Shown here piece by piece: positions 4,081 through 22,814 of a DNA stretch of 26,889 nt. The notes under the pieces are model-generated. The model did not search any database. It worked only from the letters and a program-made list of their open reading frames with translations, and was not told the DNA's origin. Source of the DNA: Rhodospirillales bacterium (GTDB lineage Bacteria; Pseudomonadota; Alphaproteobacteria; Rhodospirillales; CALINB01); assembly GCA_040216475.1 (NCBI GenBank), contig JAVJPD010000182.1, positions 1-26,889 on the forward strand, in the 5' to 3' direction. The translations under genes and the position numbers were made by a program. Positions within the stretch are counted from its first letter, which is position 1, and every line of letters begins with the position of its first letter.

Positions 4081-4824
4081 TCACTCTCCGGCTATTTTAG
4101 GCGCGGCCTGTTCGGCGGCCTCGGCAATATCCTCCGGGGCATGCTCAGTGTCCGCAAGCACCGGGCTCCACAGCCATCGGAATACCAACGTCGCGGCGAC
4201 GGCGCCGGCAAGCTGCACGGCGATGAACGCCGGCGCGTGATCCGGCACGATCCCTGAAAAAGTATCGGTGAACGAGCGCGCGACGGTCACGGCGGGATTG
4301 GCAAACGAGGTGGACGAGGTGAACCAGTACCCGGCGGTAATAAAGAGACCTACCGCATACGGCACTGCTTGCGGCGCGGCGCGCACGCACCCGAGGATGG
4401 TCGCCAGCAGGCCGAAGGTCGCGACGAATTCGCCGGTCCATTGCCCGACGCCGGTCCGAGCCGTGCTTGATGCCGTCAGGTACGGCTCGCCGAACATGAC
4501 GTGGGCGATCATCGTGCCGATCAACGCGCTGACGATTTGCACGATGATATAGGCGAACGCTTCACCGGAGGGAATCGCGCGTTGCAGCCAAAACGAAACC
4601 GTCACCGCCGGATTGAAATGCGCGCCCGAAACGCGCCCGAAAATCAGGATCAGCACCACCAGGATCGCGCCGGTCGCGATCGTGTTGCCGAGCAGCGCGA
4701 TGGCCGTATTGCCGCCGGCCAAGCGCTCGGCCATGATGCCCGAGCCCACCACGGTCGCGAGCAGAAAGGCCGTGCCGAGGGCTTCCGCCATCAAGCGGCG
4801 CTGCAGATCGAACCGCTCGTTCAT
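4081..4824 (-). CDS. aqpS: MIP/aquaporin-family channel, AqpS-like arsenite channel
   Basis: Two NPA boxes (SGAHFNPAVT, STSFANPAVT) and N-terminal AEALGTAFLLATVVGSGIMAE. ATGA overlap with the arsC stop. Confidence 0.85.
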   Translation of the reverse strand: MNERFDLQRRLMAEALGTAFLLATVVGSGIMAERLAGGNTAIALLGNTIATGAILVVLILIFGRVSGAHFNPAVTVSFWLQRAIPSGEAFAYIIVQIVSALIGTMIAHVMFGEPYLTASSTARTGVGQWTGEFVATFGLLATILGCVRAAPQAVPYAVGLFITAGYWFTSSTSFANPAVTVARSFTDTFSGIVPDHAPAFIAVQLAGAVAATLVFRWLWSPVLADTEHAPEDIAEAAEQAAPKIAGE

Positions 4825-5333
4825 GCGCTTCGAGGCAGGCTCGTGCCGATTTCGTTCAGGCGCTTTTGCAGGGTCAGCTTATCCAACGACGCCATCGGCA
4901 GGCTGATGAAAATCCCGATACGAAAATGAATCTGCTTGAAGACGTCCAGAAAATACGCCCGTTTCTCGACGTCGGCGCCCTCGAACGCCGCCGGGTCGGG
5001 AAACCCCCAATGCGCCGTCATCGGCTGGCCGGGCCAAATCGGACACACTTCGCCGGCGGCCTTGTCGCAGACCGTAAAAACGAAATTCAATTCCGGGGCA
5101 CCCGCACGGTCGAACTCCGCCCAATCCTTCGAGTGCAACTCGCCGGTCGGATAGTTCATTCCTCGCAGGATGTCGATCGTTATCGGATTGACCGTGCCCG
5201 CCGGATGGCTGCCGGCGCTATATGCCTTGAACCGGCCCTTGCCCTCACGGTTCAGAATAGCTTCCGCCATGATGCTGCGCGCCGAATTGCCCGTGCAAAT
5301 GAATAAGACGTTGTAGATTTTTTCTTCGCTCAT
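4821..5333 (-). CDS. arsC: Arsenate reductase ArsC, LMW-PTP (thioredoxin-type) fold
   Basis: VLFICTGNSARSIMAEA P-loop, SAGSHP, TVCD..AGEVCP Cys pair, HWGFPDP. Lies inside the ars operon. Confidence 0.92.
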   Translation of the reverse strand: MSEEKIYNVLFICTGNSARSIMAEAILNREGKGRFKAYSAGSHPAGTVNPITIDILRGMNYPTGELHSKDWAEFDRAGAPELNFVFTVCDKAAGEVCPIWPGQPMTAHWGFPDPAAFEGADVEKRAYFLDVFKQIHFRIGIFISLPMASLDKLTLQKRLNEIGTSLPRSA

Positions 5334-5360
5334 CGGAAGCTCCTCCTCTGGAATATGCGT

Positions 5361-5798
5361 TTAAGGGCAACATATCTGCCCGCATTTTTCCTTTTCATCG
5401 CTCAATTCGTTCAATGGCGCGCTGGCACCGTAAACGGTGCTGTCGTTGAACGTCAGAAACGCTTCCCATGGTTTGCCGTCGGGATCGGATATCCAGGATT
5501 TCTCCTGATCGGCGTAACAGCACGTGGTGCGCCCCTCCTCCAAAACGGGCCGCCCCGCTTTCGCGAGCCGCGCGTATACTTCCGACAGCTCCGCCGCCGT
5601 TTCGACCTGGATGCCGAAGTGGCCGTCGCCGGACGATTTCGAGGCATCGCTGATCGCGAAATTCACACGCGGATCGTCCACCATCCATTTCGCGTAATCG
5701 TCCTTGATCACCGTCGGCTCCATCGCGAACAAGGCGCTGTAAAAGTCGATCGCCTGTTTCAGATCATTAACTTTGGTATGAATATGTAACCGTTTCAT
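5361..5798 (-). CDS. arsI: ArsI/CadI-family VOC metalloenzyme (putative C-As lyase)
   Basis: RLHIH, FYSALF, YAKW.VDDPRVNFAIS, GHFGIQV, vicinal TCCYA, KSWISDPDG.PWE. Confidence 0.88.
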   Translation of the reverse strand: MKRLHIHTKVNDLKQAIDFYSALFAMEPTVIKDDYAKWMVDDPRVNFAISDASKSSGDGHFGIQVETAAELSEVYARLAKAGRPVLEEGRTTCCYADQEKSWISDPDGKPWEAFLTFNDSTVYGASAPLNELSDEKEKCGQICCP

Positions 5799-5822
5799 GA
5801 CGATTCTCCGTTTGACGGGGGG

Positions 5823-6161
5823 TTATTCCGGTTTGGCGCATATCGCGGCGCGGGCAAGATCGCCGCACATCTCCGGGCGGCCCTGACAGCAATCTTCCGT
5901 CAGGAACGTCAGCAGCCGGCGCATGCCCTCGAAGTCGACGGCATAGAAAATTTGGCGCTGCACCCGCCAGGAACGCAGCAATCGGGCGCGATCGAGATGC
6001 GCCAGATGGTGTGACAATGTGGGCGGACTGACCTCGAGTTTTACGGCGATGGCGCCGGCGCTGAGGCCGTTCGGCCCGGCCCGCACCAGAAGGCGAAACG
6101 CCGATAGCCGGGTCCGGTGAGCAAGGGCGCCGAGCGCCTCGGTGGCTTGATTCGTATCCAT
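5823..6161 (-). CDS. arsR: ArsR/SmtB-family repressor with C-terminal CC..C site
   Basis: ALGALAHRTRLSAFRLLV, PPTLSHHLAHL, YAVDFEGMRRLLTFLTEDCCQGRPEMC. Start placed at ATG 6161 rather than 6179 because of the promoter geometry. Confidence 0.9.
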   Translation of the reverse strand: MDTNQATEALGALAHRTRLSAFRLLVRAGPNGLSAGAIAVKLEVSPPTLSHHLAHLDRARLLRSWRVQRQIFYAVDFEGMRRLLTFLTEDCCQGRPEMCGDLARAAICAKPE

Positions 6162-6196
6162 ATTTCGATGTTTCGACAATTATCGAAATAAATCAA
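6161..6196 (-). promoter_or_regulatory. ars promoter (TTGATT-N17-AAACAT) with overlapping ArsR operator
   Basis: On the minus strand, -35 is at 6191-6196 and -10 at 6168-6173, 6 nt before ATG 6161. The inverted repeat TATTTCGAT-N12-ATCGAAATA (6161-6190) covers the spacer, -10 and start. Confidence 0.7.
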
Positions 6197-9097: not shown

Positions 9098-10090
9098 ATG
9101 ATGAAAATAGCTATTCTTGACGATTATCTCGACGTCGTGCGCGGCCTCATCGATTGGTCCGTGCTTCCCGAGGGAACGGACATCGTCCGCTTTACCGATC
9201 ATCTCACGGACGAAGCCGCCCTGGCGGAACGGCTGGCGCCGTTCGATATCGTCCTCGCCAAGCGCGAACGAACCCCCTTCCCCCGCTCGCTGTTGGAGCG
9301 CTTGCCGAATCTGAAACTCATGGTGATCGGGCGCACACACAACCGCAAGATCGACCGTGCCGCCGCCGAGGCGCTCGGCATTCTCGTAACCGGTACCGAA
9401 CGCTTCGGCTCGTCGGCCGCCGAGTTGACGTGGGGCTTGATCTTATCCCTGACGCGCAACATCCCCGGCGAGGACCGGGCGGTCCGCGCCGGACGCTGGC
9501 ACGACGGACTCGGCAAAACCCTGGCGGGGCGCACCCTCGGCGTCATCGGGCTCGGGCGCATCGGTACAAAAATCGCACGCATCGGCGCAGCGTTCGACAT
9601 GAACGTGATCGCCTGGAGCCAGAACATGACGCCGGAAAAAGCAAGCGACGCCGGCGCCCGGTATGTCGGCAAGGAGGAACTGTTCCGTGAGGCCGACGTC
9701 GTCACCGTCCATGTGGCGCTCAGCGAACGCACGCATCACCTGATCGGCGCCGGCGACCTCAGCCTGATGAAACCGACGGCCTATCTCGTCAATACGGCGC
9801 GCGGCCCGATCATCGACGAAACGGCCTTGGTCGCCGCTCTGCAGGCGGGCGCCATCGCCGGCGCCGGCCTCGATGTGTTCGAACAAGAACCGCTACCGGC
9901 CGGCCATCCGCTTCGTAGCCTGAACAATACGATCGTGACCCCGCATATCGGCTACGTCACCGAAGAAAGTTTCAAGGGCTACTATCAAAGCGCGTTGGAA
10001 AATATTCAGGCATTTCTCACGGGCCGACCCGTGCCGCGAACGCTGAATGCGCCGGCAAACCCGCGGCACTCCTATAAAGCCGCCGGTTAA
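9098..10090 (+). CDS. D-isomer-specific 2-hydroxyacid dehydrogenase family protein
   Basis: GVIGLGRIG, NTARGPI, GLDVFEQEP, TPHIG, and an MKIAILDDY N-terminus typical of this subgroup. Confidence 0.9.
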   Translation: MMKIAILDDYLDVVRGLIDWSVLPEGTDIVRFTDHLTDEAALAERLAPFDIVLAKRERTPFPRSLLERLPNLKLMVIGRTHNRKIDRAAAEALGILVTGTERFGSSAAELTWGLILSLTRNIPGEDRAVRAGRWHDGLGKTLAGRTLGVIGLGRIGTKIARIGAAFDMNVIAWSQNMTPEKASDAGARYVGKEELFREADVVTVHVALSERTHHLIGAGDLSLMKPTAYLVNTARGPIIDETALVAALQAGAIAGAGLDVFEQEPLPAGHPLRSLNNTIVTPHIGYVTEESFKGYYQSALENIQAFLTGRPVPRTLNAPANPRHSYKAAG

Positions 10091-10231: not shown

Positions 10232-10702
10232 ATGTGGGACCGCATACTCGGGTCCGGCGTCGTGGCGCTGGCCTTAGGGTATTTATTCGCAACCTACGAA
10301 TTACCGGTGAAGGATATCGGCGATCCGATCGGACCGCAGATGTTTCCCTATATGATCGGCTTCGGCACCCTGGTCTGCGGCATTTGGATTCTTTTCGAAA
10401 GCATCTTCAAAAAGCAGGAAGCCGTCGCGGCAGCCTCCGGCCAACAAACCGACGGCTACGTTAAAAGCCGGCCGCTGGCGGCGATCGGCGTTCTGGCTTG
10501 GACCGGTGTGTATTTCACGCTGTTCGAATTTCTCGGCTTCGCCATTTCCTGCACGATCTTTCTGTTCGGCATGACGTCGTTCTTCAATCGCGGGAAATGG
10601 CTTACCAACGCCCTGGTTTCGATCATTTTCTCGTTCGGCGTTTTCTACGTTTTCACACAGCTTCTCGACGTGAAACTCGCGCCGGGTCCGCTCCCGTATT
10701 AA
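10232..10702 (+). CDS. tctB: Tripartite tricarboxylate transporter small subunit TctB
   Basis: 156 aa with about four TM segments, D.IGPQMFP motif, LGFAISCT, FTQLLDVKL. Directly upstream of tctA. Confidence 0.88.
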   Translation: MWDRILGSGVVALALGYLFATYELPVKDIGDPIGPQMFPYMIGFGTLVCGIWILFESIFKKQEAVAAASGQQTDGYVKSRPLAAIGVLAWTGVYFTLFEFLGFAISCTIFLFGMTSFFNRGKWLTNALVSIIFSFGVFYVFTQLLDVKLAPGPLPY

Positions 10703-10736: not shown

Positions 10737-12254
10737 GTGGAATTCGCCAACATTCTGGATCATGTCCTACATGGCTTCACCGTTGCCTTGCAATGGAAGA
10801 ATATCATGTTCCTCTTCATCGGCGCCTTGCTCGGCACGGTGATCGGCATCATGCCGGGCATCGGCTCGTCCGCCGGCATCGCGCTGCTGCTACCGATGAC
10901 GTTCGGCATGGACCCGATCCCGTCCCTGATCATGCTCGCCGGCATCTATTACGGCGCCATGTACGGCAACACGGCGTCCGCCGTGCTGATCAACACGCCC
11001 GGCACGGCCTCGGCCTCGATGACCACCGTCGACGGCTACCCCATGGCGAAGAAAGGCCGCGGCGGCGCGGCGTTGGCGGCGTCGGCCATCGCGTCGTTTA
11101 CCGCCGGCACCATCGGCATCCTCGGCCTGACGTTCCTCTCCATTCCTTTCACCAATTTCGCGCTCAAGTTCGGCCCGGCGGAATACTTCATGCTGATGTT
11201 CTTTTCCATGTCGGCGGTTTCCTCGCTCACGGGACGCTCCGTGCCGAAGGGCCTGTTCGCCGCCTTCCTCGGCCTGATGATCGCATCCATCGGCATGGAC
11301 CTGCAGACCGGCATGCCGCGTTACGTCTTCGACATCCCGGAATTACAGACGGGCATTTCGTTCCTGATCGTGATCGTCGGCGCGTTTGCCGTCGCCGAAG
11401 TTATGCTCAACGTCGAAAAGTGGTTCGTGGGCAAGCTCGAGCCGATCAAGATTCAAGGCAGCCTGTATCTGACGCGCGAGGAATGGAAACGCTGCTGGCG
11501 GCCGATCGTTCGCGGCGGCCTGATCGGTTTCTTCATCGGCGTGCTGCCGGGCGCCGGCGGTACCATCGCCACGGTGATCGCCTATTCGACCGAGCAAAAA
11601 TTGTCCAAGCACGGACACGAATTCGGCCAGGGCGCCATCGAAGGCGTCGCCGCGCCGGAAGCCGCGAACAACGCCTCCACCTGCGGCGCGTTCGTGCCGC
11701 TGCTGACTCTCGGCATTCCCGGATCGGGCACCACCGCCGTGCTGCTCGGCGCCTTTATCCTCTACGGCCTGGAACCCGGCGCCGAATTGTTCATCACGAA
11801 CCCCGATCTGGTGTGGGGCCTGATCGACAGCATGTACCTCGGCAACGTGTTCCTGATCATCATGAACCTGCCTTTGATCGGCGTTTTCGTGCGAATCCTC
11901 TACCTGCCGCCGGGGGTTTTGCTGTCGATCATTCTGGCGGTCGCGTCGGTCGGCATCTATTCGATCAACAACAACGTGACCGATCTGTACCTGCTGCTGT
12001 TCTTCGGTGCCATGGGATACGGTTTCCGCAAACTGCAAATCCCGATTCCGCCGCTGATCCTCGGATTGGTGCTCGGCAAGCTGATGGAAAACTCGCTGCG
12101 TCAGGCCTTGATCATCTCGAACGGCAGCCTGGAGATTCTGGTCCACAGCCCCATCTGCATCACGCTGCTGGCATTGGCAATTGCCGCCATGTTGCTGCCG
12201 ATCATCAGCGCGCGCCTGAAGATTTTAAGGGCACGAGATTCGGACGACGAATGA
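10737..12254 (+). CDS. tctA: Tripartite tricarboxylate transporter large subunit TctA
   Basis: [22 protein letters not shown]...[35 protein letters not shown]. 505 aa, GTG start. Confidence 0.95.
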
Positions 12255-12372: not shown

Positions 12373-13374
12373 ATGTCTTTTAAAATGAATATTCTATCGT
12401 CTTCTCTGATGGCTTTAGCCATCCTCGCCCTGACCGCCTTTGCGGTCCCGGCGCAGGCCGCCTGGAAACCCGGCGATAAGATTGAAATTCTCACCGGCTG
12501 TAAAACCGGCTGCGGCCCCGACCGGATCGCCCGGGTCCTACAAAAAATCTGGCAAAAGCAGGGCCTCGTCAAATCGCGCGTCGTCGTCGTGAACAAGGCC
12601 GGCGGCGGCAATTCCATCGCCTTGACGTACCTGCAGCAGCACAAAGGCGACGGCAATTATCTGATGTTGAGCGGCTCGGCCGTCGCGACCAGCTATTACA
12701 CCGGACGCTCGCCGATCGGCACGAAGCATCTGACGGCCGTCGCGCTTCTCATTACCGAGTATATCGCCACTGCCGTTAAGCCCGACTCGCCGTATAAAAC
12801 GGCGAAGGACTTGATTGCTCAAATCAAGAAAGATCCCAAGTCGGTTGCCATCGGCACCGCCACCAGCCGCGGTAATTCCAATCATCAGGCGATCACGCTC
12901 GCCGCCATGGCCGCCGGGATCGATCCGAATTCGATGAAGTTCGTGATCTTTCAGTCGGGCCGTATAGGGCGCACCAACCTGCTCGGCGGTCACGTGGATG
13001 CAGCCCAGTCGAGTGTCGGCGGTTTTCTCAAACATCATCAGCAAGGCAAGCTGCGTATCCTCGCCGTCAGCTCCGAGGAACGACTCGGCGGCGCCATCAA
13101 GGACGTACCGACCTGGAAAGAGCAAGGCTTCGATATCGTCGTGCCGAATCTGCGCGCCCTCCTCGGTCCTTCGGACATGACCAAGGAGCAAACCGACTAT
13201 TGGGACGGCGTTCTGGAAAAGACCGTTAAAACGGAGACCTTCAAAAAGTCCCTGATCCGGCGCCAGATGAAGGCGACCTACATGGGCCACGAAAAATTCA
13301 CGCCGTATCTCCGCAAGCATGAAAAACAGATGAAGAAGGTTCTGAAAACGCTGGGTATTCTCAAGCGCGACTGA
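12373..13374 (+). CDS. tctC: TTT substrate-binding protein TctC/Bug, copy 1
   Basis: Signal peptide ending AQA-A, VVVNKAGGG, LLGGHVD, LRILAVSS..R, VPTWKEQG. 333 aa. Confidence 0.9.
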   Translation: MSFKMNILSSSLMALAILALTAFAVPAQAAWKPGDKIEILTGCKTGCGPDRIARVLQKIWQKQGLVKSRVVVVNKAGGGNSIALTYLQQHKGDGNYLMLSGSAVATSYYTGRSPIGTKHLTAVALLITEYIATAVKPDSPYKTAKDLIAQIKKDPKSVAIGTATSRGNSNHQAITLAAMAAGIDPNSMKFVIFQSGRIGRTNLLGGHVDAAQSSVGGFLKHHQQGKLRILAVSSEERLGGAIKDVPTWKEQGFDIVVPNLRALLGPSDMTKEQTDYWDGVLEKTVKTETFKKSLIRRQMKATYMGHEKFTPYLRKHEKQMKKVLKTLGILKRD

Positions 13375-13393
13375 GGAAGCCCTTCAAGCTCAC

Positions 13394-13430
13394 AAAAAAT
13401 CCGGCAATTGCGGATTGCCGGGTTTTTTTT
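13394..13430 (+). terminator. Rho-independent (likely bidirectional) terminator
   Basis: Stem CCGGCAAT (13401-13408) / ATTGCCGG (13414-13421), with an A6 run before and a T8 run after. Confidence 0.85.
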
Positions 13431-13456
13431 GCACCTGAAATCGGCGGCCTCCCATG

Positions 13457-13487
13457 CTCGACGCTGCCGAAATTTTCATGTTAGAGT
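13457..13487 (+). promoter_or_regulatory. Putative promoter of tctC copy 2
   Basis: CTCGACGCT-N13-TGT-TAGAGT. The same 9-mer and spacing recur upstream of copy 3. Confidence 0.5.
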
Positions 13488-13536
13488 AACGGCAGTCATA
13501 AAAATCTGTTTTTAAACATTCTAAGGGAGTTTAACG

Positions 13537-14538
13537 ATGAATCGCATACTACGGAGCTCGGTCTTACCTATTGCAGCCATCGCCGGTCTGGCGCTCGGCG
13601 CCGGCGCCGGCACGGCCGACGCGGCCTGGAAACCGACCAACAAGGTCGAGATTTCCGTCACCTGCAAGCCCGGCTGCGGTCCCGACCGGATCGCCCGCAT
13701 GCTGCAGAAGATCTGGAGCGTTCATAAACTCGTCGATGCCGACGTGGTCGTGCATAACAAGGCCGGCGGCGGCGGCGCCATTCAGTTGAACTACATCAAT
13801 TCCCATCCCGGCGACGGCCACTATCTCGGCATCGCCAGCGCCAGCGCGCTGACCACCTATTACACGGGCCGCACCAAGATCGGCCTGCGCGACATGACGC
13901 CGCTTGCCCTCCTGCTGACCGAATACATCGTCACCGCGGTCAAGGGCGACGGACCGATCAAGGACGCCAAGGATCTGATGGCAAGGATCAAGGCCGATCC
14001 GCAATCGGTGTCGATCGGCACGGCGACCAGCCGCGGCAACGCCAACCACCAGGCGATCTCGCTCGCCGCCCTGCGCAGCGGCATCGACCCGAAGAAGATG
14101 AAGTTCGTCATCTTCCAATCCGGCCGGATCGGGCGCACCAACCTGATCGGCGGACATGTCGATGTCGCTCAATCCAGCGCCGGCGGCTTCCTGAACGCCC
14201 ACAAGCAGGGCAAGCTGCGCATCGTCGCCGTCAGTTCGCCCGAGCGCCTGGGCGGGCCGGCCAAGAACGTACCGACCTGGAAAGAACTCGGCCTCGATGT
14301 GGTCATCGGCAACTTCCGGGCGATGATGGGCCCGAAGGGCATGACCAAGGACCAGATCGCCTATTGGGATGGGGTTTTCGCGAAAACCGTCAAGACCAAG
14401 GAATTCCAAAAATCGCTGACCAAACGCCAGATGAAGGAAACCTTCATGAAGCACGATGACTTTATGAAGTTCATCGACAAGGAAGAAAAACAGATCAAGG
14501 AAATCCTGGACGCTCTGGGAATCCTGAAGGTCAAATAA
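13537..14538 (+). CDS. tctC: TTT substrate-binding protein TctC/Bug, copy 2
   Basis: Signal peptide ending ADA-A, VVVHNKAGGGG, LIGGHVD, VPTWKELG. 333 aa, SD AGGGAG. Confidence 0.9.
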   Translation: MNRILRSSVLPIAAIAGLALGAGAGTADAAWKPTNKVEISVTCKPGCGPDRIARMLQKIWSVHKLVDADVVVHNKAGGGGAIQLNYINSHPGDGHYLGIASASALTTYYTGRTKIGLRDMTPLALLLTEYIVTAVKGDGPIKDAKDLMARIKADPQSVSIGTATSRGNANHQAISLAALRSGIDPKKMKFVIFQSGRIGRTNLIGGHVDVAQSSAGGFLNAHKQGKLRIVAVSSPERLGGPAKNVPTWKELGLDVVIGNFRAMMGPKGMTKDQIAYWDGVFAKTVKTKEFQKSLTKRQMKETFMKHDDFMKFIDKEEKQIKEILDALGILKVK

Positions 14539-14591
14539 TTCCGCCGCGGCGGAACAAGAACCCGGCAGCCGCTTCGGCTGCCGGGTTTTTT
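14539..14591 (+). terminator. Rho-independent terminator preceded by a 16-bp palindrome
   Basis: TTCCGCCGCGGCGGAA at 14539-14554, then stem AACCCGGCAGCCG/CGGCTGCCGGGTT (14559-14587) running into a T6 tract. Confidence 0.85.
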
Positions 14592-14661
14592 GATGAATTT
14601 TTCTAAGCCGCCGCGGCCGGACCGAACGGTCCGGGAAAAGACGGCCCGGCGCATCATCCCA

Positions 14662-14692
14662 CTCGACGCTCGTCTCGACCGCGTGGTAAAAC
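14662..14692 (+). promoter_or_regulatory. Putative promoter of tctC copy 3
   Basis: CTCGACGCT-N13-TGG-TAAAAC, same architecture as 13457-13487. Confidence 0.45.
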
Positions 14693-14775
14693 TTCTCTAG
14701 CAAGCCGGAAACTAGGTACCACCCCCAGGCACCGGACGTGCCGGTTTGTTTTCATATCAACTGGAGGTAAAGAAG

Positions 14776-15777
14776 ATGCGCTTGGTGTTTCGCTCCAAAG
14801 CGTTGCCGGCTGCGCTACTGGCCGGCTTAACCCTGACTTTTCATTCGGCAACCGTCGAGGCGGCCTGGAAGCCGACCAAGAAAGTCGAAATTTCCGTCAC
14901 CTGCAAACCGGGATGCGGTCCCGATCAAATCGCCCGCTTGCTGCAGAAAATCTGGAAAACCGAAAAGATCACGCCTGTCGATACGGTCGTGCACAACAAG
15001 GCCGGCGGCGGCGGCGCGGTGCAGCTGAACTACATCAATTCCCATCCCGGCGACGGCCACTATCTCGGCATCGGCAGCGCCAGTTCGCTCACGACCTATT
15101 ACACGGGCCGAACCAAGATCGGCCTGCGCGACGTGACGCCGCTCGTATTGCTGGTGACCGAATACATCGTCACCGCGGTCAAGGGCGATTCGCCGATCAA
15201 ATCGGCCAAGGAGTTGCTGGCCCAAATCAAGAAGGACCCGGCGTCCCTGTCGATCGGCACGGCGACCAGCCGCGGCAACGCCAACCATCAGGCGATCTCG
15301 CTCGCCGCCCTTCGCGCCGGCATTGATCCCAAGAAAATGAAGTTCGTCATTTTCCAATCGGGCAGCATCGGCCGGACCAACCTGCTCGGCGGACACGTCA
15401 ACGTCGCGCAATCGAGTGCCGGCGGATTCCTGAAGCACCACAAGCAGGGCAAGCTGCGCATCCTCGCCGTCAGTTCGCCCGAACGCCTCGGCGGCGAAGC
15501 GAAGGACGTGCCGACCTGGAAGGAACTCGGCTACGACTTCGAAGTCGGCAACTTCCGCTCGGTCATGGGCCCAAGCGGCATGACCAAGGATCAGATCGCC
15601 TATTGGGAAGACGTCTTCTCCAAGACCGTCAAGACCAAGGAGTGGCAGCAGTTCCTGAATCGGCGCCAGATGGCCAATGCCTATCTGCCGCATAGTGAAT
15701 TTCTCAAGTTCCTCGACAAGGAAGAAAAGCAGATCAAGGAAGTCCTGGACGCGCTGGGAATCCTGAAGGTCAAATAA
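14776..15777 (+). CDS. tctC: TTT substrate-binding protein TctC/Bug, copy 3
   Basis: Start moved to ATG 14776 after SD GGAGG (14763-14767), giving 333 aa. About 60 differences from copy 2 over ~304 mature residues by hand count. Confidence 0.9.
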   Translation: MRLVFRSKALPAALLAGLTLTFHSATVEAAWKPTKKVEISVTCKPGCGPDQIARLLQKIWKTEKITPVDTVVHNKAGGGGAVQLNYINSHPGDGHYLGIGSASSLTTYYTGRTKIGLRDVTPLVLLVTEYIVTAVKGDSPIKSAKELLAQIKKDPASLSIGTATSRGNANHQAISLAALRAGIDPKKMKFVIFQSGSIGRTNLLGGHVNVAQSSAGGFLKHHKQGKLRILAVSSPERLGGEAKDVPTWKELGYDFEVGNFRSVMGPSGMTKDQIAYWEDVFSKTVKTKEWQQFLNRRQMANAYLPHSEFLKFLDKEEKQIKEVLDALGILKVK

Positions 15778-15835: not shown

Positions 15836-15879
15836 GTGTGAAAATCGACGGAACAAAAACGACACCCGGGGAGAGCACC

Positions 15880-16641
15880 GTGACAACGACTCAAGAACTC
15901 GCGGGCATGACCGCTATCGTGACCGGCGCGGCGCGCAACATCGGCCGGGCCATCGCCCTCGACCTGGCGGCCGGCGGCGCCAAGGTCTGCGTGAACGCGA
16001 ATACGTCCAAGAAGGACGCCGAGGAAACCGCCGCCCTCATCGAAAAAGCCGGCGGCGAGGCATTCGTTCACATCGCCGACGTTACCGACCCCAAGGCCGT
16101 GCAAGGCATGGTCGACGCGGTTCTGAAACGGTTCGGCGGGATCGATATTCTCGTCAATAACGCCGCCGCGCGCGAGGAATTCCCGTTCGAGGAGATCACC
16201 TTCGAATCCTGGAAAAAACTTTCCGCGATCATTCTGGACGGCGCTTTTCTCTGTTGCCAGGCTTGTCTGCCCGAACTCAAGAAATGCGGCCACGGATCGA
16301 TCGTCAACATCGGCGGCCAATCGGGCGATTGCGGCATGACCGAGCGTGCCACCATCTCGGCCGCCAAGGCCGGGCTCGCCGGTTTTACGCGCGGCGTCGC
16401 CATGGATATCGCCCACTACGGCATTACCGTGAACTACGTCTCGCCGGGCCCCGTCAACACCCAGGGCAGCATGATGGTCCGCCACGCCCAGACATCGTTC
16501 AAAAAGAAACGTCAGACGCCGATCGGCCGTTCCGTGGAGCCCGCCGAAATCGCGGCCATGGTCCGCCATCTTTGCGGCCCCAAGGCGCGTGCGATCACGG
16601 GACAGAAGATCATGATCAACGGCGGCATTCTGATGGTTTAA
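15880..16641 (+). CDS. SDR-family oxidoreductase with non-canonical catalytic motif (IxxxK)
   Basis: TGAARNIGRAIA, DILVNNAA, VNYVSPG, ITGQ.I.INGG. GTG 15880 follows SD GGGGAG. Confidence 0.85.
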   Translation: MTTTQELAGMTAIVTGAARNIGRAIALDLAAGGAKVCVNANTSKKDAEETAALIEKAGGEAFVHIADVTDPKAVQGMVDAVLKRFGGIDILVNNAAAREEFPFEEITFESWKKLSAIILDGAFLCCQACLPELKKCGHGSIVNIGGQSGDCGMTERATISAAKAGLAGFTRGVAMDIAHYGITVNYVSPGPVNTQGSMMVRHAQTSFKKKRQTPIGRSVEPAEIAAMVRHLCGPKARAITGQKIMINGGILMV

Positions 16642-16680: not shown

Positions 16681-17661
16681 ATGAAAATCGTATACTCGCT
16701 GGCTTGGGAAATCGATCCGTTCGAGCCGATCAAGGAGACCTTTCCGGGTGTCGAGTGGGTCAGGGCCAGCGCCTTGGACGGCTTCGGCGACGTGCTCGGC
16801 GACGCCGACGGCCTGATCGTCAGCGCGACCCAGTACAACGCCAAGGTCGCCGATGAAATCAAACAAAAGGCCAAGAAGCTCCGCTGGATGCAATCGGCCG
16901 CCATCGGGATCGACAATTTCGTCAAGTTCGGCATCCCCGACGGCGTAACGCTCACCAACGCGGCCGGACTCAAGGGCGGCACCGTTTCCGAACACACGTT
17001 CGCCCTGTTGATGGCGCTTTCGCGCGCGACCGTGCATATGGAACGTTTCCGTGCCGCCGGAGAATGGCAAAACGATCTGGTCCGCACCCTGATCACGCCG
17101 CTCGAAGGCCGTACCATGGTCATCGTCGGCTACGGCTCGATCGGCCAGCAACTGGGCCGCAAGGCCAAGGCGTTCGACATGAACGTGATCGCCGTCAGCC
17201 GCTCCGGCACGAGCGACGAGAATGCCGACAAGGCCGTCACGGTCGACAAACTGCTCGATGTTCTGCCCGAAGCCGACGTCGTCGCCGTGGTGCTGCCGTC
17301 GAATCCGGACTCTCACCACCTGATCGACGCCAAGGCCTTCGCCGCCATGAAGAAAGGCGCGATTTTCGTCAACACCGGCCGCGGCGCGACCATGGACGAA
17401 AAGGCACTCGTCGCCGCCTTGCAAAGCGGCCATCTCGGCGGCGCCGGACTCGACGTTTTCGAGGTCGAGCCCCTGTCCGCCGACAGCCCGCTCTGGACGA
17501 TGGACAACGTCGTGCTGTCGCCGCACATCGCCGGCACCAGCGATCGCACCTACGCCCTGTTCGTCGATCTGGTCCGCGGCAATATCGAGCGGTTTCAAAA
17601 AGGCGAGCCGCTGCGGCACGCCATCCCGGCGGAGATGCTCAAAACGACGAACGCCGCCTGA
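16681..17661 (+). CDS. D-2-hydroxyacid dehydrogenase family protein
   Basis: WMQSAAIGID, IVGYGSIG, NTGRG, GLDVFEVEPL, SPHIAG. Confidence 0.9.
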   Translation: MKIVYSLAWEIDPFEPIKETFPGVEWVRASALDGFGDVLGDADGLIVSATQYNAKVADEIKQKAKKLRWMQSAAIGIDNFVKFGIPDGVTLTNAAGLKGGTVSEHTFALLMALSRATVHMERFRAAGEWQNDLVRTLITPLEGRTMVIVGYGSIGQQLGRKAKAFDMNVIAVSRSGTSDENADKAVTVDKLLDVLPEADVVAVVLPSNPDSHHLIDAKAFAAMKKGAIFVNTGRGATMDEKALVAALQSGHLGGAGLDVFEVEPLSADSPLWTMDNVVLSPHIAGTSDRTYALFVDLVRGNIERFQKGEPLRHAIPAEMLKTTNAA

Positions 17662-17700: not shown

Positions 17701-18855
17701 TCACGGCCCCTCGTCGGAGATCTGGCGGGTGACCCGGATGTCGAACTGCTCGTAGGGAATCTTCCTGAGCGCCGCCTCGTCGACTTCAATGCCGAGACCG
17801 GGGCCGGTCGGTAATTGGATGTAACTGTCTTTTTGTATCATCGGATTGCCCGGCGAAAGTTGCTGCGCCAGCGGTTCGTAGGGCACGAAGTATTCCGCGA
17901 TGATGAAGTTCGGCATCAGCGCGCAGGCGTGAATCGAGGCCGCCATCCCGACCAGGGTCGAGTTGTAGTTATGCGGCGACATCGCCACGTAATAGGGCTC
18001 CGCCATCGCGCCGATTTCCTTGAGCTTCAGAATGCCGCCGCAGCTGCCGACGTCGGGGTTGAGAATATCGGCGGCTTCGTTCACGAGCACGTCGCGGAAT
18101 CCCGCGGTGGTGTGAATGCCCTCGCCGGTTACCACCGGCAGGGAAATGTTCGCCCGGATTTCCGCGAGCGCATCGACGTTCTCCGCCGTGCACGGCTCCT
18201 CGAACCAATAGAGGTTGAACTCCTCCAACCGCTCGGCGAGACGTGCCGCGTGATGAGGCGACAGTTTGCGGCTGAGATCGACCATGAGATTGATATCCGG
18301 GCCGACCGCGTCGCGCACGGCGCGCACGTTGGCGACGGCGTCATTTTCCTGTTTGGCGCTGACGAAGGTCCGCGCGGCGCCGGTCAGACAGTAGAATTTC
18401 ATCGCCGTGAAACCGAGTTTCGCGGTCTTCTCCGCGGCGCGGGCGAAATCGTCCGGAGTCTTGCAGCCGAACGCCCAGCCGTTGGCATAAACATAGAACT
18501 TGTCGCGCACCGGCCCGCCGAGCAGGTTGTAAACCGGCTGGTCGAGAGCCTTGCCGACGATGTCCCACAATGCGATCTCGATCCCCGACAGCGCCGAGTA
18601 GAACTCGAGCGAGGCGCGCCGCGCGGCGCCGTCGTTGAAGGCGATTTCCGTGAAATATTTGATCTGAAACGGATCGCGCCCGATCAGGTAGCGCGCGAGT
18701 TCCTCGACCATGACGGCGGTTGCGCGTTCACGATCGTGATGCGTGAACGCCTCGCCCCACCCGATGATACCGTCGTCGGTCGTAACCTTGACATAAGCGA
18801 GGTTCTTGCGGAAATCGCTTCGAAACAGAAAACATTCGACGGACTTGACCTTCAT
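17701..18855 (-). CDS. Mandelate racemase/muconate lactonizing enzyme family, acid-sugar dehydratase-like
   Basis: VKVTTDDGIIGWGE, SGIEIALWDIVGK, LLGG, metal ligands in VD / FEEP / TGE, PHN, PGLGIEVD. Confidence 0.9.
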   Translation of the reverse strand: MKVKSVECFLFRSDFRKNLAYVKVTTDDGIIGWGEAFTHHDRERATAVMVEELARYLIGRDPFQIKYFTEIAFNDGAARRASLEFYSALSGIEIALWDIVGKALDQPVYNLLGGPVRDKFYVYANGWAFGCKTPDDFARAAEKTAKLGFTAMKFYCLTGAARTFVSAKQENDAVANVRAVRDAVGPDINLMVDLSRKLSPHHAARLAERLEEFNLYWFEEPCTAENVDALAEIRANISLPVVTGEGIHTTAGFRDVLVNEAADILNPDVGSCGGILKLKEIGAMAEPYYVAMSPHNYNSTLVGMAASIHACALMPNFIIAEYFVPYEPLAQQLSPGNPMIQKDSYIQLPTGPGLGIEVDEAALRKIPYEQFDIRVTRQISDEGP

Positions 18856-18901: not shown

Positions 18902-19858
18902 TTAATCTTGAACGTTGAGATAGCCACGCGGATGCGGCGGCTTGGCAAAGGCTGCCGGATCGCACGTCGTCGGGTCGCCGTCGAGCTGACAGCGCTTGGC
19001 GATACGATCCTGGCCCGGCGGGATGGCGTTGCGGTGATGCATGACGGCGCGGTTGTCCCACATCAGAATGTCGCCCTCGCGCCATTTGTGGTGCCACTGG
19101 AACTCGGGCTTGGTCGCGTGTGCCCAAAGCTCATCGAGCAGCGCCTCCGAGTCCTCGAGCGTCAGGCCGTTGACGTAGGCGAACGGACGGCGCCCCAAAT
19201 AGAGCGCGTTGTAGCCGGTTTTCGGATGGGTGCAGACGATCGGATGGTTCGGCCCCGGACTGGTGCGGATATCCCCCGGCGGTTTTTGGTTGCCGCGCAA
19301 CTGGCCGCCGCTGTTGTAGGCGGCGTCGTTCTTGATGCTGAGGCCCTTGATGCGTTCACGCGTCGCCTCGGGCAGGGTTTCAAGCGCCAGGTACATGTTG
19401 CAAAAACCGGTCTCGCCGCCCCGCTCCGGCGCCAAGGTGCCGTACAGCACGCTGTAGCTGAGCGGGATTTCCCGATAGGAATGATCCGTGTGCCAGACGA
19501 CCTCCTTGTCGCCGAACTGGCCGATCGGCACGCCGTTTTCCTTGATGTTGGAATTGATACCGATATAGGGGTTGGTCCGCGCCTTCATGCCTTTCGGCGA
19601 TTCTTCCGGCTTCGAGCCGGGACGCAGCACGCCGAAGTGCCGGGCGAAGTCGAGCTGATCCTCGTCGGTCAATTCCTGATCGCGAATCAGGATCACCAGG
19701 TTATCCAACAGCGCCCGATGGACGACCGCGGCGGTCGCGTCGTCAATGGCCTTGACGTCGCCGCAGCGCACTTCCGCGCCGAGCGCATGGGGTAACGGAA
19801 TGACCTCGATTTGGCCGTTATGGCTCAGGCCAACCTCTTCTAGCGCGACCGTCGACAT
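18902..19858 (-). CDS. TauD/TfdA-family Fe(II)/2-oxoglutarate dioxygenase
   Basis: WHTD (HxD), GGETGF, HPIVCTHP.TG, LYLG, WREGDILMWDNR.VMH, distal R. ATG 19858 with SD GGAGG. Confidence 0.92.
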   Translation of the reverse strand: MSTVALEEVGLSHNGQIEVIPLPHALGAEVRCGDVKAIDDATAAVVHRALLDNLVILIRDQELTDEDQLDFARHFGVLRPGSKPEESPKGMKARTNPYIGINSNIKENGVPIGQFGDKEVVWHTDHSYREIPLSYSVLYGTLAPERGGETGFCNMYLALETLPEATRERIKGLSIKNDAAYNSGGQLRGNQKPPGDIRTSPGPNHPIVCTHPKTGYNALYLGRRPFAYVNGLTLEDSEALLDELWAHATKPEFQWHHKWREGDILMWDNRAVMHHRNAIPPGQDRIAKRCQLDGDPTTCDPAAFAKPPHPRGYLNVQD

Positions 19859-20031
19859 GATTCGGCCTCCCTTTGTTAAAAAAAGTTTGTTCGGCAAAGA
19901 GTTTCAGAAGATGATTCGATTGTAGCGCGTATATTACGTTTATGTAAATAACCCCCTGGCGGAATGTTCGTCTTATGATTAAGCTGGCGGCACGTCCGTA
20001 TCATCACTCTTTCATAACCAGGGAGGCGCAC

Positions 20032-20892
20032 ATGGCCAATAATATGGCCAAGGATAATGCTTGGCTCGACAAACCGTCGTTCGATTTTCTCACCATTCCG
20101 ACCGCAAAACCGAAGCCGCGCAAAGACCGCTGGACCGTGATGAGCGACCGCTCGATCCCGACCAAGTTCGTCGACGATTATTTGACGTACAACGGCAACC
20201 TGATCGACGAGGTCAAGTTCGTCGACTTCACGGGGATTCACCGGATCAGCGCGCGCACCATCGTCGAAAAAAACAAGGTGTATAAGAAATACGGTATCCC
20301 GACGTTTCCGGGCGGGGTCGCCTTCGAGATCGCCTACCTGCAGGGCAAGGTCGACGAATTTTACGAACGCGTTATCGAACTGGGTTTCACGGGCATGGAA
20401 GTCAGCACCGATTCGATGCCGGAATTGCTGCGCGAGGAACGATCCGCCCTGATCAAGAAGGGTACCGGCATGGGGCTTCAGGTCTTTACCGAAGTCGGCA
20501 AGAAATTCTTCGACGATCCGTTCCCGGCGGAAGAAGCCGTGAGGTGCATCCAGGCGGATCTCGACGCCGGCGCCGTCAAGGTCGTGCTCGAAAACACGGA
20601 ATTGATGCACTATCACCAAAACGATGCGGAAACGCTGCGCCGGATCATCGAGCCGGTCGGCCTCGAAAATCTGATTCTCGAAATCGGCCGCAACGGCTGG
20701 CCGCACCTGACCATGTGGCTGTTGCGCGAATACGGCCCCGACATCAACGTCGAAAACATCGAGCACGACCGCATCGCCACGCTCGAGGGCATGCGCCGCG
20801 GCCTGCAACGGATCATGGGCTACGAATATCTCAGCACGATCCAAAACAAGCCCCCGCTCGACCTGCACGACCTCAAGGACCAGGCCGGCTGA
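20032..20892 (+). CDS. Divergent phosphosulfolactate synthase (ComA)-family TIM-barrel protein
   Basis: KPR..WTV.SD, IDEVKF, PGG..FE.AY, LGF..MEVS, EER..LI, TEVGKK, DLDAGA..V..E, GP..N..N, LE..RRGL. ATG 20032 after SD GGGAGG. Confidence 0.85.
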   Translation: MANNMAKDNAWLDKPSFDFLTIPTAKPKPRKDRWTVMSDRSIPTKFVDDYLTYNGNLIDEVKFVDFTGIHRISARTIVEKNKVYKKYGIPTFPGGVAFEIAYLQGKVDEFYERVIELGFTGMEVSTDSMPELLREERSALIKKGTGMGLQVFTEVGKKFFDDPFPAEEAVRCIQADLDAGAVKVVLENTELMHYHQNDAETLRRIIEPVGLENLILEIGRNGWPHLTMWLLREYGPDINVENIEHDRIATLEGMRRGLQRIMGYEYLSTIQNKPPLDLHDLKDQAG

Positions 20893-20898
20893 GCTGAT

Positions 20899-22236
20899 AT
20901 GGATGTAACCCGCCGCCTCGCCCGGTTCGCGCTCGAGCTCAAGCCCGAGGACGTCCCCGAGTCCGTGCGCCACGATGCGAAACGCTCGCTGATCAACTTT
21001 CTCGGCTGCTCGATCGGCGGCGCCCAGCATGAAACCGTCGACAAGCTGACGGCGGCGACCGTACCGTTCGCGGGCCCGGCGCAGGCGAGCGTGCTGGGCC
21101 GCGGCGAACGGCTCGATATCGTGAACGCCGCCCTGATTAACGGCACCAGCTCGGCGGTGCTCGACTTCGACGCGACGCAAGCGAAGAAGACCAACATCCA
21201 CCCGAGCGGCCCGGCGGCACCCGTGTGCCTGGCGCTTGCCGAATATGCCCCCGTCAGCGGCGGCGATTTCCTGCATGCGTTTATCCTGGGCGTCGAGATC
21301 GAGTGCCGCATCGCCAACACGGTGTTCGGCGCGAAGAACCCGGGCTGGCACGTGACCAGCGTGTGCGGCGGCTTCGGCGCGGCCGCCGCCGCCGGCCGGG
21401 TGCTCGGGCTCGACGAGCAGCAACTGGTCTGGGCGTTCGGGATTGCCGCCAACCTCGCCGGCGGCATCCGCGAAAACTACGGCACCATGGTCAAAAGTTT
21501 CGCGCCCGGGGTGGCGGCGCGCAACGGCCTCACCGCGGCCCTGATGGCGCAACAAGGCTTCGTGAGCGACGACCGCGCGCTCGAGGGTTCCAAGGGGTTC
21601 GCCGCCGCCATGACCGGCGTGGCCGATTTGAAAGCGCTCACCGAGAACTTCGGCAAGGACTTCGAGATTTCCTATAATACCTACAAGGCTTTCGCCTGCG
21701 GCATCGTGACCCACGCCAGTGTCGACGGCTGCATCCAACTCAGAAACGAGAACCGCTTGCAGCCCGAGCGGATCGTACGGGTTTCGCTCCGGGTCAGCCC
21801 GAATACGCTGCTGCTGACCGGCAAGCCGGAGCCGCGAACCGGGCTTGAGGGTAAATTCAGCGTTTATCATGCCGCCGCCGCCGCGCTTATCGACGGCGCC
21901 GCCGGCGAAGCCCAGTTCACCGACAAACGCGTTCACGATCCCTCCGTCATCGCGCTGCGCAAATGCATCACGGCGCAGGCCGAGGAAAGCATCGGCAAAT
22001 ACGAAGCCTATGTGAGCATCGAACTCGATGACGGACGCAAACTCGAACGCCACGTCGAGCATGCATTGGGGTGCCTGGAAAACCCCATGAGCGACAACGA
22101 CCTCATCACCAAGTATAATGAGCTGGTGAGCGGGGTTTTCCCCGACAAACAACGCGACGAACTGGCCGAGCTGTGCTGGTCGGCCGATACTCTCAGCGAC
22201 GCCGCCGTCCTCGCACGCGCGGCGGTGAAGACGTAA
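20899..22236 (+). CDS. MmgE/PrpD-family protein
   Basis: AALINGT...LDFD, HPS, GVEI.CRI, GWH.T...G.FGAAAAA, AARNGL.AA, LEG.KGF, YK.FACG..TH, KFS. Confidence 0.9.
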   Translation: MDVTRRLARFALELKPEDVPESVRHDAKRSLINFLGCSIGGAQHETVDKLTAATVPFAGPAQASVLGRGERLDIVNAALINGTSSAVLDFDATQAKKTNIHPSGPAAPVCLALAEYAPVSGGDFLHAFILGVEIECRIANTVFGAKNPGWHVTSVCGGFGAAAAAGRVLGLDEQQLVWAFGIAANLAGGIRENYGTMVKSFAPGVAARNGLTAALMAQQGFVSDDRALEGSKGFAAAMTGVADLKALTENFGKDFEISYNTYKAFACGIVTHASVDGCIQLRNENRLQPERIVRVSLRVSPNTLLLTGKPEPRTGLEGKFSVYHAAAAALIDGAAGEAQFTDKRVHDPSVIALRKCITAQAEESIGKYEAYVSIELDDGRKLERHVEHALGCLENPMSDNDLITKYNELVSGVFPDKQRDELAELCWSADTLSDAAVLARAAVKT

Positions 22237-22247
22237 AGAGGAACCCC

Positions 22248-22814
22248 GTGAAAAGCATCCTGCTGATCGGCGACATGATCAACGATATCATCCATCCCGA
22301 CGGGCCGAACAAATACGGCGAGGAACTCGCCCGGCGCGACACCATCGCCAATACCGCAACCGTGATCGCCAAGGCCCGTGCCGCCGGCGTGCCCGTTGGT
22401 TACATCCGAGTCGGCTTTTCGCCCGATTACCGGGAATGCCCGCCGCACTCGAAAATCTTCCAGGGCGCGAAAAAGAGCGGCATCTTCAAACTCGGCACCT
22501 GGGGCACGGAAGTCCATCCCGATCTCGCGCCGCAGGAGAGCGATTTCGATATCGTCAAGCACCGCGTCAGCCCGTTTTACGGCACCGATTTGGAGCCGCT
22601 TCTCAAGGCTCAAGGCGTCGAGCGAATCTACATCTGCGGCGTTTCCACCGGCGGCGTGGTGATGTCGGTTGCCAAGGAAGGCCACGATAGAGATTATAAC
22701 ATCGTCATCATCGACGACTGCTGCTGCGCCGGCAGCGAGGACGAACACCGGTTCCTGCTGAACAATATGGCGCGCTTCGCCGGCGTAACGACAAGCGCCG
22801 AGATCGAGTTTTGA
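22248..22814 (+). CDS. Isochorismatase/cysteine-hydrolase family protein lacking the catalytic Cys
   Basis: LLIGDMIND, GTWGTEVHPDLAP, KHRVSPFYGTDLE..L, GVSTGGVV, GHDRDY..V.I.DCC. GTG 22248 with SD AGAGGA. Confidence 0.85.
   Translation: MKSILLIGDMINDIIHPDGPNKYGEELARRDTIANTATVIAKARAAGVPVGYIRVGFSPDYRECPPHSKIFQGAKKSGIFKLGTWGTEVHPDLAPQESDFDIVKHRVSPFYGTDLEPLLKAQGVERIYICGVSTGGVVMSVAKEGHDRDYNIVIIDDCCCAGSEDEHRFLLNNMARFAGVTTSAEIEF

Follow-up and report, generated by a model that had tools for sequence, protein, structure and literature searches.

The window studied here, i.e. the whole stretch of DNA that was analysed, comprises 26,889 nt of contig JAVJPD010000182.1 from a metagenome-assembled genome (MAG) of a Rhodospirillales bacterium (GTDB CALINB01, assembly GCA_040216475.1). 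It carries a gene of the ComA family (PF02679), the family to which the phosphosulfolactate (PSL) synthase ComA of Methanocaldococcus jannaschii (EC 4.4.1.19, structure 1QWG) belongs. We report that the encoded ComA-like protein very probably serves catabolism and is no PSL synthase. Its properties are best explained by a functional triosephosphate isomerase (TIM)-barrel enzyme of the ComA fold, predicted to be homotrimeric, with an activity other than PSL synthesis.

Membership in the family is clear. The protein matched the Pfam profile ComA with 156.7 bits (cut-off 25.2) over model positions 3–241 of 243, and phmmer aligned it to M. jannaschii ComA with an E value of 1.7e-32. An AlphaFold model (pLDDT 86, pTM 0.81) yielded a (β/α)8 barrel that superposes on the solved ComA structures; in Foldseek comparisons the TM score was 0.84 against 1QWG (rmsd 2.7 Å, 32% identity) and 0.80 against YitD of Bacillus subtilis (1U83, 26% identity). 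The profile alignment and the superposition thus bear out the ComA fold proposed in an initial annotation that had been made from the sequence alone. Ranked after ComA came the Mg-dependent phosphoenolpyruvate (PEP) mutase/(methyl)isocitrate lyase superfamily and class II aldolases, with TM scores of about 0.5. The NCBIfam equivalog model for PSL synthase, TIGR03849, gave 137.5 bits, far short of its cut-off of 280. A HMMER search of 1.84 billion representative proteins returned 612 clusters at E ≤ 0.001, 33 of them at E ≤ 1e-30; therefore the ComA family is small. Comparison of the gene with two orthologues gave dN/dS values of 0.064 and 0.034, and the protein is therefore under strong purifying selection.

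The separation from PSL synthases is most evident in the sequence motifs. Motif columns were read from an alignment that combined the best 150 hits with those of the first search and with the paralogues from the genome itself, taking GWGT/GFGT, GGT, E[AG]RESG, [FW]EAP..QQ and GLRGDT as the canonical set. In the alignment to 1QWG and to archaeal and bacterial canonical sequences, KFGWGT is exchanged for KFVDFT in the window protein, and the alignments to canonical sequences likewise give PGGV in place of PGGT, ENTELMHY in place of E(G/A)RESGKG, LEIGRNGWP in place of FEAP..QQ and GLQRIM in place of GLRGDT. The canonical SDG loop is replaced as well, and TEVGKK is kept. All the motif changes that the initial annotation had listed, together with the retention of TEVGKK, are therefore present in the alignments. 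It had also allowed that such substitutions might be common in active ComA enzymes, which is not what we found: both 1QWG and 1U83 retain GWGT, GGT, E[AG]RESG, FEAP and the GLR of GLRGDT, where both alignments stop.

In a FastTree phylogeny of 150 rows, whose representatives are biased towards the query, the sequences with canonical motifs form a single clade of 30 rows (SH-like support 97). The window protein belongs to a 47-row clade (support 100) that is entirely non-canonical and drawn from uncultured genomes only; this clade is nested in a tree half of 74 rows (support 100) without any canonical sequence. Among the 150 representatives of the family that are nearest to the query, at least 117 are non-canonical. 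This is what the initial annotation had missed: the altered state is common among the closest relatives, and the gene is one of a large expansion of paralogues, described below.

The positions that are replaced here are 85–100% conserved within the canonical clade, and the clade of the window protein conserves another set of residues. Because each clade conserves a residue set of its own, the motif pattern is not a matter of chance. Conserved in the canonical clade only are R25, G33, W65, G127, G192, G196, A218, P219, Q226, Q227, R259 and T262, numbered as in the window protein; in its clade D65, G68, F98, D127 and R260 are conserved instead, to which the inner clade of 18 rows around the window protein adds W34, R40, R71, G219, P224 and E241. 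The loops after strands 2, 3, 4, 6, 7 and 8, which are invariant among PSL synthases, are replaced by a set that is conserved within the clade; the loops were placed by means of the model's secondary structure and the predicted interface contacts. Residues conserved in at least 90% of the 150 rows form a second, family-wide group: K28-P29-R30, D39, D59, K62, K80, G94-G95, E99, E123, S125, E154, G156, K158, E187, E217, N239, N242 and R255. All of these are present in the window protein, and the at least 117 non-canonical rows keep them too, with few rows deviating and then at single positions. In the model, most of the invariant residues are located at or just past the C-terminal ends of strands 1–8, the usual site of catalysis in TIM barrels. 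K158 aligns with K137 of M. jannaschii ComA.

A homotrimer of the ComA-like protein was predicted with a score of 0.92, compared with 0.00 for the best control. Of 30 proteins solved as same-chain pairs, 20 attained the mark used for this score, as did one of 23 solved as single chains; since the prediction may draw on memory of the solved ComA trimer, it is to be read as likeness and not as proof of assembly. At least 88% of the contacts were common to the runs and the partner pLDDT was at least 88. The predicted interface brings residues 40–46, 65–78, 96–97, 127–130, 189 and 220–221 against residues 249–258 of the neighbouring subunit. Replaced loops are among these residues, and the rebuilt loops are therefore predicted to line a pocket between subunits, with loops of adjoining chains coming together at the mouth of the barrel. 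Tandem pairs or triplets of distant ComA-like paralogues were frequently observed, some of them in pieces (C728, i.e. L020:3005-4285; L012:9133-11689; L027:10001-11659; L047:6001-7634). With a pocket located between subunits, it is conceivable that such tandem paralogues form heterotrimers.

The window genome (G000) is a 3.2-Mb MAG of 771 contigs with an estimated completeness of 94.7% and contamination of 5.6%. PF02679 gave 12 matches in it, seven of them to genes of full length and five to fragments located at the ends of contigs. In two congeneric genomes (G001 and G002; completeness 98% and 96%, contamination 1%) there are 8 and 9 matches, respectively; since these cleaner genomes carry similar numbers, contamination does not explain the count, although genomes of the same genus are not independent observations. 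The paralogues share 25–47% identity with the window protein and fall into at least five separate subclades, none of them canonical, and those with readable flanks are located among catabolic genes. The other 38 sampled genomes of the same order have no or one copy, and of another 400 alphaproteobacterial genomes, which represent about 300 genera, only 10 contained PF02679, with one or two copies each.

Partners for CoM or PSL metabolism were looked for at two levels. As stated in the initial annotation, the window contains none of the CoM genes: Pfam scans of all plausible open reading frames (ORFs) detected no comB, comC, comDE or other gene of this pathway. The annotation had left room for comB elsewhere in the genome, and neither the MAG nor the two congeners yielded a match to comB (PF04029). 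Hits resembling sulfopyruvate decarboxylase in the genome stayed below the cut-off, and four Ldh_2 (ComC-type) genes are present elsewhere in it, Ldh_2 being a broad family. The set of PSL pathway partners comB, comC and comDE was thus not recovered, and xcbC/D/E were not searched for. The Pfam scans also gave no kinase or phosphatase partner in the operon of the ComA-like gene, which fits the loss of motifs that are conserved in PEP-binding enzymes.

The genomic surroundings of the gene are compiled in Table 1.

Table 1. Features of the window around the ComA-like gene, with their coordinates and the evidence for each
Feature	Coordinates	Strand	Evidence
ComA-family (PF02679) TIM-barrel gene, 286 aa, non-canonical clade, first gene of operon	20032..20892	+	Pfam, 1QWG match, model
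Shine-Dalgarno sequence AGGGAGG, 5 nt before ATG 20032	20020..20026	+	Sequence inspection
AT-rich divergent intergenic region between the start codons of the TauD-like and ComA-like genes	19859..20019	.	Sequence inspection; full spacer 19859-20031, 173 bp
TauD/TfdA-family Fe(II)/2-oxoglutarate dioxygenase gene, divergent from the ComA-like gene	18902..19858	-	Pfam TauD, 210.5 bits
MmgE/PrpD-family gene, 6 nt past the ComA-like stop codon	20899..22236	+	Pfam MmgE_PrpD_N and _C
Isochorismatase-family hydrolase gene, likely start GTG 22248	22248..22814	+	Pfam Isochorismatase, 143.7 bits
MR_MLE enolase-superfamily gene, acid-sugar-dehydratase-like	17701..18855	-	Pfam MR_MLE_N and _C
D-2-hydroxyacid dehydrogenase gene (b)	16681..17661	+	Pfam 2-Hacid_dh_C, 201.6 bits
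Short-chain dehydrogenase/reductase (SDR) gene	15838..16641	+	Pfam adh_short_C2, 191.7 bits
Three tandem TctC solute-binding protein genes (12373-13374, 13537-14538, 14746-15777)	12373..15777	+	Pfam TctC, 88-97 bits each
TctB membrane part of a tripartite tricarboxylate transporter	10232..10702	+	Pfam TctB, 80.9 bits
TctA membrane part of a tripartite tricarboxylate transporter	10737..12254	+	Pfam TctA, 520 bits
D-2-hydroxyacid dehydrogenase gene (a), first in the conserved block	9098..10090	+	Pfam 2-Hacid_dh_C, 215.6 bits

Sequence inspection placed the stop codon of the ComA-like ORF (TGA) at 20890–20892. A longer version starting at 19975 was dropped: the 285-aa orthologues have their start at the position equivalent to 20032, so that the earlier start is not needed. 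The divergent TauD-like gene has its Shine-Dalgarno sequence at 19866–19872 on the minus strand, and the spacer between the two genes presumably holds both promoters. Within it, at about 19936–19949, lies the near-palindrome TTACGTTTATGTAA, which could be an operator. No regulator gene adjoins this spacer within the window.

The ComA-like gene forms an operon with the MmgE/PrpD-like and the isochorismatase-like genes, with junctions of 6 nt and 11 nt and with Shine-Dalgarno sites. For the third gene this site is AGAGGA at 22237–22242, following the PrpD-like stop codon; its mechanically called ORF begins at 22173, and an orthologue has 190 aa. The closest solved structure to the PrpD-like protein is iminodisuccinate (IDS) epimerase (2HP3, 155 bits), followed by cis-aconitate decarboxylases, and its scores are far below the PrpD equivalog cut-offs of NCBIfam. 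The TauD-like protein is closest to the ether-cleaving enzymes RdpA and TfdA among solved structures and then to TauD. It retains the equivalents of E. coli TauD residues H99, D101, H255, R266 and R270, but not of H70 and Y73, and the comparison with E. coli TauD did not distinguish a sulfonate from a carboxylate substrate. For the MR_MLE protein, the NCBIfam galactonate dehydratase model gave 269 bits against a cut-off of 311; PDB entry 2POZ, a 'putative dehydratase', was matched. The gene order of the window block is kept in three orthologous loci of Rhodospirillales MAGs (L009, L024 and L025). The three tctC genes of the window, which are 60–79% identical to each other, accompany a single tctBA pair, and the orthologous loci have one or two. 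Apart from this block, a cluster resembling ars genes extends over 4081–6179 on the minus strand, with an ArsR-type helix-turn-helix gene (5823–6179), a glyoxalase-fold gene (5361–5798), a low-molecular-weight phosphatase/ArsC-like gene (4821–5333) and an MIP channel gene (4081–4824). Sludge metagenomes gave DNA matches of small share only, with no RNA dataset among those listed, and we claim no habitat.

Related loci were sought with an alignment of 12 closer rows, and at many of them the neighbours were annotated by tblastn with the window's own proteins; for several representative proteins the contig was too short to show any neighbours. The distant members of the window clade came from MAGs only (Betaproteobacteria, Burkholderiales, Chloroflexi UBA6077 and groundwater Deltaproteobacteria), and together with Rhodospirillales these are the lineages in which the neighbours recur. 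TctC or TctA was found beside or near a ComA-like gene at nine loci. MR_MLE genes, the commonest enzyme neighbours, adjoin it at no fewer than seven (the window, C310, C364/L039, L012/L027, L013, L034 and L035), and TauD genes directly adjoin it in at least six (the window, contig C434 of the window genome, G002 C2 near 261 kb, L028, L033 and L046), with the arrangement of ComA, TauD and TctC present in L028 and L033. PrpD, SDR and 2-hydroxyacid dehydrogenase genes occur nearby at several loci, and further neighbours encode PrpF, aconitase, OYE-type Oxidored_FMN, AMDase/maleate-isomerase-like, Amidohydro_2 and CoA-transferase III proteins. Judged by their families, many of these recurring neighbours would form, isomerise, hydrate or reduce α,β-unsaturated carboxylates.

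Some of these loci deserve separate mention. L046:56-5019 comes from a different lineage; its ComA-like protein shares 40% identity with the window protein, and the gene is located between two TauD genes, followed by an OYE-type Oxidored_FMN/FAD flavoprotein of the ene-reductase family. A conserved cluster in contig C307 of the window genome (L021:1-6210) and G002:C18:1700-10218 (L036) encodes a 363-aa protein of unknown function, a PrpD-like protein, an aconitase-family protein, a second unknown protein of 412 aa and a ComA-like protein; it resembles a methylcitrate-type module of dehydration, rehydration and cleavage in which the ComA-like protein would take the lyase position. At G002:C2:260656-265038 (L042:9630-14033) a ComA-like gene extends over two overlapping reading frames and may be frameshifted or a pseudogene; TauD adjoins it and TauE lies about 3 kb away. 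When five of the TauE proteins encoded by the genome were compared by tblastn with about 33 ComA-like loci, this was the only locus at which linkage to a sulfite exporter was found.

The genus is rich in several of these families. TauD/TfdA (PF02668) reached 53 and 40 matches in two genomes of 3.1–3.2 Mb; in the window genome 21 matches were at E ≤ 1e-60 and TauD hits were spread over 30 contigs. Some other families of the order are TauD-rich as well (97 first-look candidates in G027 and 34 in G005), but most have 0–2. TauE/SafE-family anion exporters (PF01925) number 10–12 genes in each of the three genomes of the genus, and MmgE/PrpD homologues are present on about 30 contigs of the window genome. 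Taken together, the TauD, TauE, PrpD and ComA expansions suggest a specialist in unusual organic acids or sulfonates.

Which reaction the protein catalyses is a separate question. The conserved acid/base residue and the acidic residues at the strand ends suggest a capacity to polarise a carboxylate and to handle a carbanion at the α-carbon. Combined with the transporter and the enoate-related neighbours, this makes conjugate addition or elimination on an imported acid the best reading, and we give about even chances to a Mg-dependent enzyme of this kind acting on an unsaturated or β-substituted carboxylate. The retained core would bind the carboxylate with Mg2+ and stabilise a carbanion or aci-carboxylate at the α-carbon, as ComA does when sulfite adds to PEP, with K158 serving as acid/base. 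The loops that are invariant in the enzymes using PEP and sulfite are those that differ here, and clade-specific Arg and Asp residues are placed in the same predicted pocket. The reaction might then be a reversible Michael-type addition or a β-elimination, i.e. a hydratase or lyase step, on an α,β-unsaturated or β-substituted (poly)carboxylic acid that would enter through the adjacent TctABC transporter. Probable partners are the translationally coupled PrpD-like protein, the isochorismatase-like hydrolase, the divergent TauD-like dioxygenase and the MR_MLE dehydratase. We infer the Mg2+ dependence, the enolate mechanism, the reaction type and the substrate class. Of the function put forward in the initial annotation, the part that sets the protein apart from CoM and PSL synthesis stands, given the TIGR03849 score, the position outside the canonical clade, the lost motifs, the want of any comB match in three genomes and the 8–12 paralogues. 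The part that named addition or elimination fits the retained core and neighbours such as PrpD, PrpF, aconitase, OYE and AMDase/maleate-isomerase-like proteins, and stays a proposal.

Several points speak against conjugate addition or elimination as the reaction. The role given to K158 leans on K137, the proposed general acid of M. jannaschii ComA, and we know of no non-canonical ComA protein that has been tied to any reaction by a ligand-bound structure or an assay. The neighbour sets are heterogeneous, and members may differ in function. The most frequent adjacent enzyme is MR_MLE; enzymes of this family yield 2-keto-3-deoxy acids, and a C-C lyase fits such a product equally well. Moreover, TauD recurs beside the gene at six or more loci and the genome is rich in TauD and TauE, which leaves room for sulfonate chemistry.

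A C-C lyase resembling aldolases or isocitrate lyase would cleave the MR_MLE-derived 2-keto-3-deoxy acid or a hydroxy-polycarboxylate made by PrpD and aconitase, and so fill a missing aldolase or PrpB-type role. The directly adjoining MR_MLE genes at seven or more loci agree with this, as do the absence of DHDPS, HpcH and KDPG-aldolase families from the Pfam-annotated loci, the clusters of PrpD, aconitase, unknown protein and ComA in C307 and G002 C18, and the ranking of PEP mutase/(methyl)isocitrate lyase and class II aldolases directly after ComA among the folds. The TM score of about 0.5, however, reflects generic TIM-barrel likeness, many loci have neither MR_MLE nor PrpD, and ComA forms its carbanion at C2, adjacent to the carboxylate, without a nucleophilic C3 enolate, so that an aldolase would require a larger change of mechanism; we consider this explanation improbable. 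Sulfonate-related chemistry, to which we likewise assign a low probability, would mean a sulfo-lyase acting on a non-phosphorylated β-sulfo-carboxylate, or the addition of sulfite to an enoate followed by its oxidative removal by the TauD-like enzyme, with sulfite being recycled. Both ancestral chemistries use sulfite, which ComA adds and TauD releases. TauD-family genes stand directly beside ComA-like genes in six or more loci of several lineages, L046 having two; the genus has 40–53 TauD and 10–12 TauE/SafE hits per genome of 3.1–3.2 Mb; one ComA locus has TauD and TauE inside 4.5 kb; and the Arg that corresponds to the anion-binding R270 of TauD is present. However, in genomes with about 50 TauD genes chance alone should bring some of them close, and TauD-rich relatives without a ComA gene exist, e.g. 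G027. TauE is near only one of the about 33 examined ComA-like loci, the neighbouring TauD-like protein is closest to RdpA/TfdA and has no equivalents of H70 and Y73, and the remaining neighbours are ordinary genes of carboxylate catabolism.

Proton transfer at the α-carbon (1,1-proton transfer) of a 2-substituted carboxylate is a further use to which the putative enolate-stabilising core, being kept, could be put; such a racemase or epimerase would feed a stereospecific partner, MR_MLE or the 2-hydroxyacid dehydrogenases. It would agree with the PrpD-like neighbour being closest to IDS epimerase and with the two 2-hydroxyacid dehydrogenases and the SDR nearby, which are types often found in stereo-inversion modules. 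Yet the PrpD-like protein could itself supply epimerase activity, and a second acid/base opposite the Lys is usually needed, for which no clade-conserved candidate was identified. This makes a racemase quite unlikely. Even less credible is that the protein is, after all, a true PSL synthase, or a PSL sulfo-lyase that works in reverse to give PEP and sulfite. Pfam and database names say PSL synthase, PSL has been proposed as the substrate of transporter-linked copies in SAR11 (PMC11796062), the reverse direction has been suggested for those copies, and other parts of the genome have Ldh_2 genes as well as genes whose likeness to sulfopyruvate decarboxylase stays below the threshold. Against this, the protein scores under the equivalog cut-off, lies outside the canonical clade and has none of the motifs common to the two solved PSL synthases, themselves only distant relatives; none of the three genomes examined from the genus yielded comB, the cluster has no kinase or phosphatase, and 8–12 paralogues are hard to square with a single reaction.

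Beyond conjugate addition or elimination by this one protein, the ComA fold may underlie a functionally diverse superfamily not recognised before, a second 'enolase-like' radiation in which the non-canonical clades would each handle an organic acid of their own and of which this genus would use 8–12 members. We put this forward tentatively and regard it as somewhat doubtful, including its boldest version, a two-enzyme module in which the ComA-like enzyme would add sulfite or another small nucleophile to an enoate and the TauD-like dioxygenase would then remove the nucleophile oxidatively. If true, such a module would convert an unsaturated acid to a β-oxo acid without CoA activation.

The gene belongs to a known enzyme family and is not a new kind of system. 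With M. jannaschii ComA the window protein shares PF02679, the (β/α)8 fold, the predicted trimer, the strand-end residues and TEVGKK, and it differs by the replaced loops, the missed equivalog score and a catabolic operon without CoM context. YitD of B. subtilis is likewise a bacterial PF02679 protein and aligns over the full length, but keeps the canonical motifs. XcbB of Xanthobacter autotrophicus acts together with the lyases XcbC/D/E on PSL (PMC9457059); compared by description, it is also a bacterial member of PF02679, and no XcbC/D/E-type partners are present next to the window gene. In genomic islands of SAR11, two 'phosphosulfolactate synthases' flank a tripartite tricarboxylate transporter (Tct-1) cassette, with PSL inferred as the substrate from the name (PMC11796062). 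These copies, again compared by description, resemble the present case in that a ComA-family gene is linked to such a transporter in an alphaproteobacterium, but our evidence speaks against PSL for the clade of the window protein. The enolase (MR/MLE) and the PEP mutase/isocitrate lyase superfamilies offer a parallel in the proposed Mg2+-assisted carbanion on a TIM barrel, in the many specificities and in the acid-catabolic clusters; there is no sequence relationship, the TM score of about 0.5 is generic, and the window protein is a member of neither. In the literature searched we found no function assigned to non-canonical ComA proteins. New here are the separation by motifs and clade, the placement of the rebuilt loops in a predicted interface and the 8- to 12-fold expansion in one genus.

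These results bear on annotation, because databases label every PF02679 protein 'phosphosulfolactate synthase', and this label has already driven pathway inferences such as PSL import in SAR11. The non-canonical members occur in catabolic islands linked to transporters, in uncultured bacteria that belong to several phyla. A small, soluble, predicted trimer with adjacent binding proteins would offer an accessible route to the substrate. With 8–12 copies in one genus and none in about 97% of the sampled alphaproteobacteria, the family points towards a group of undescribed reactions by which organic acids from the environment are degraded.

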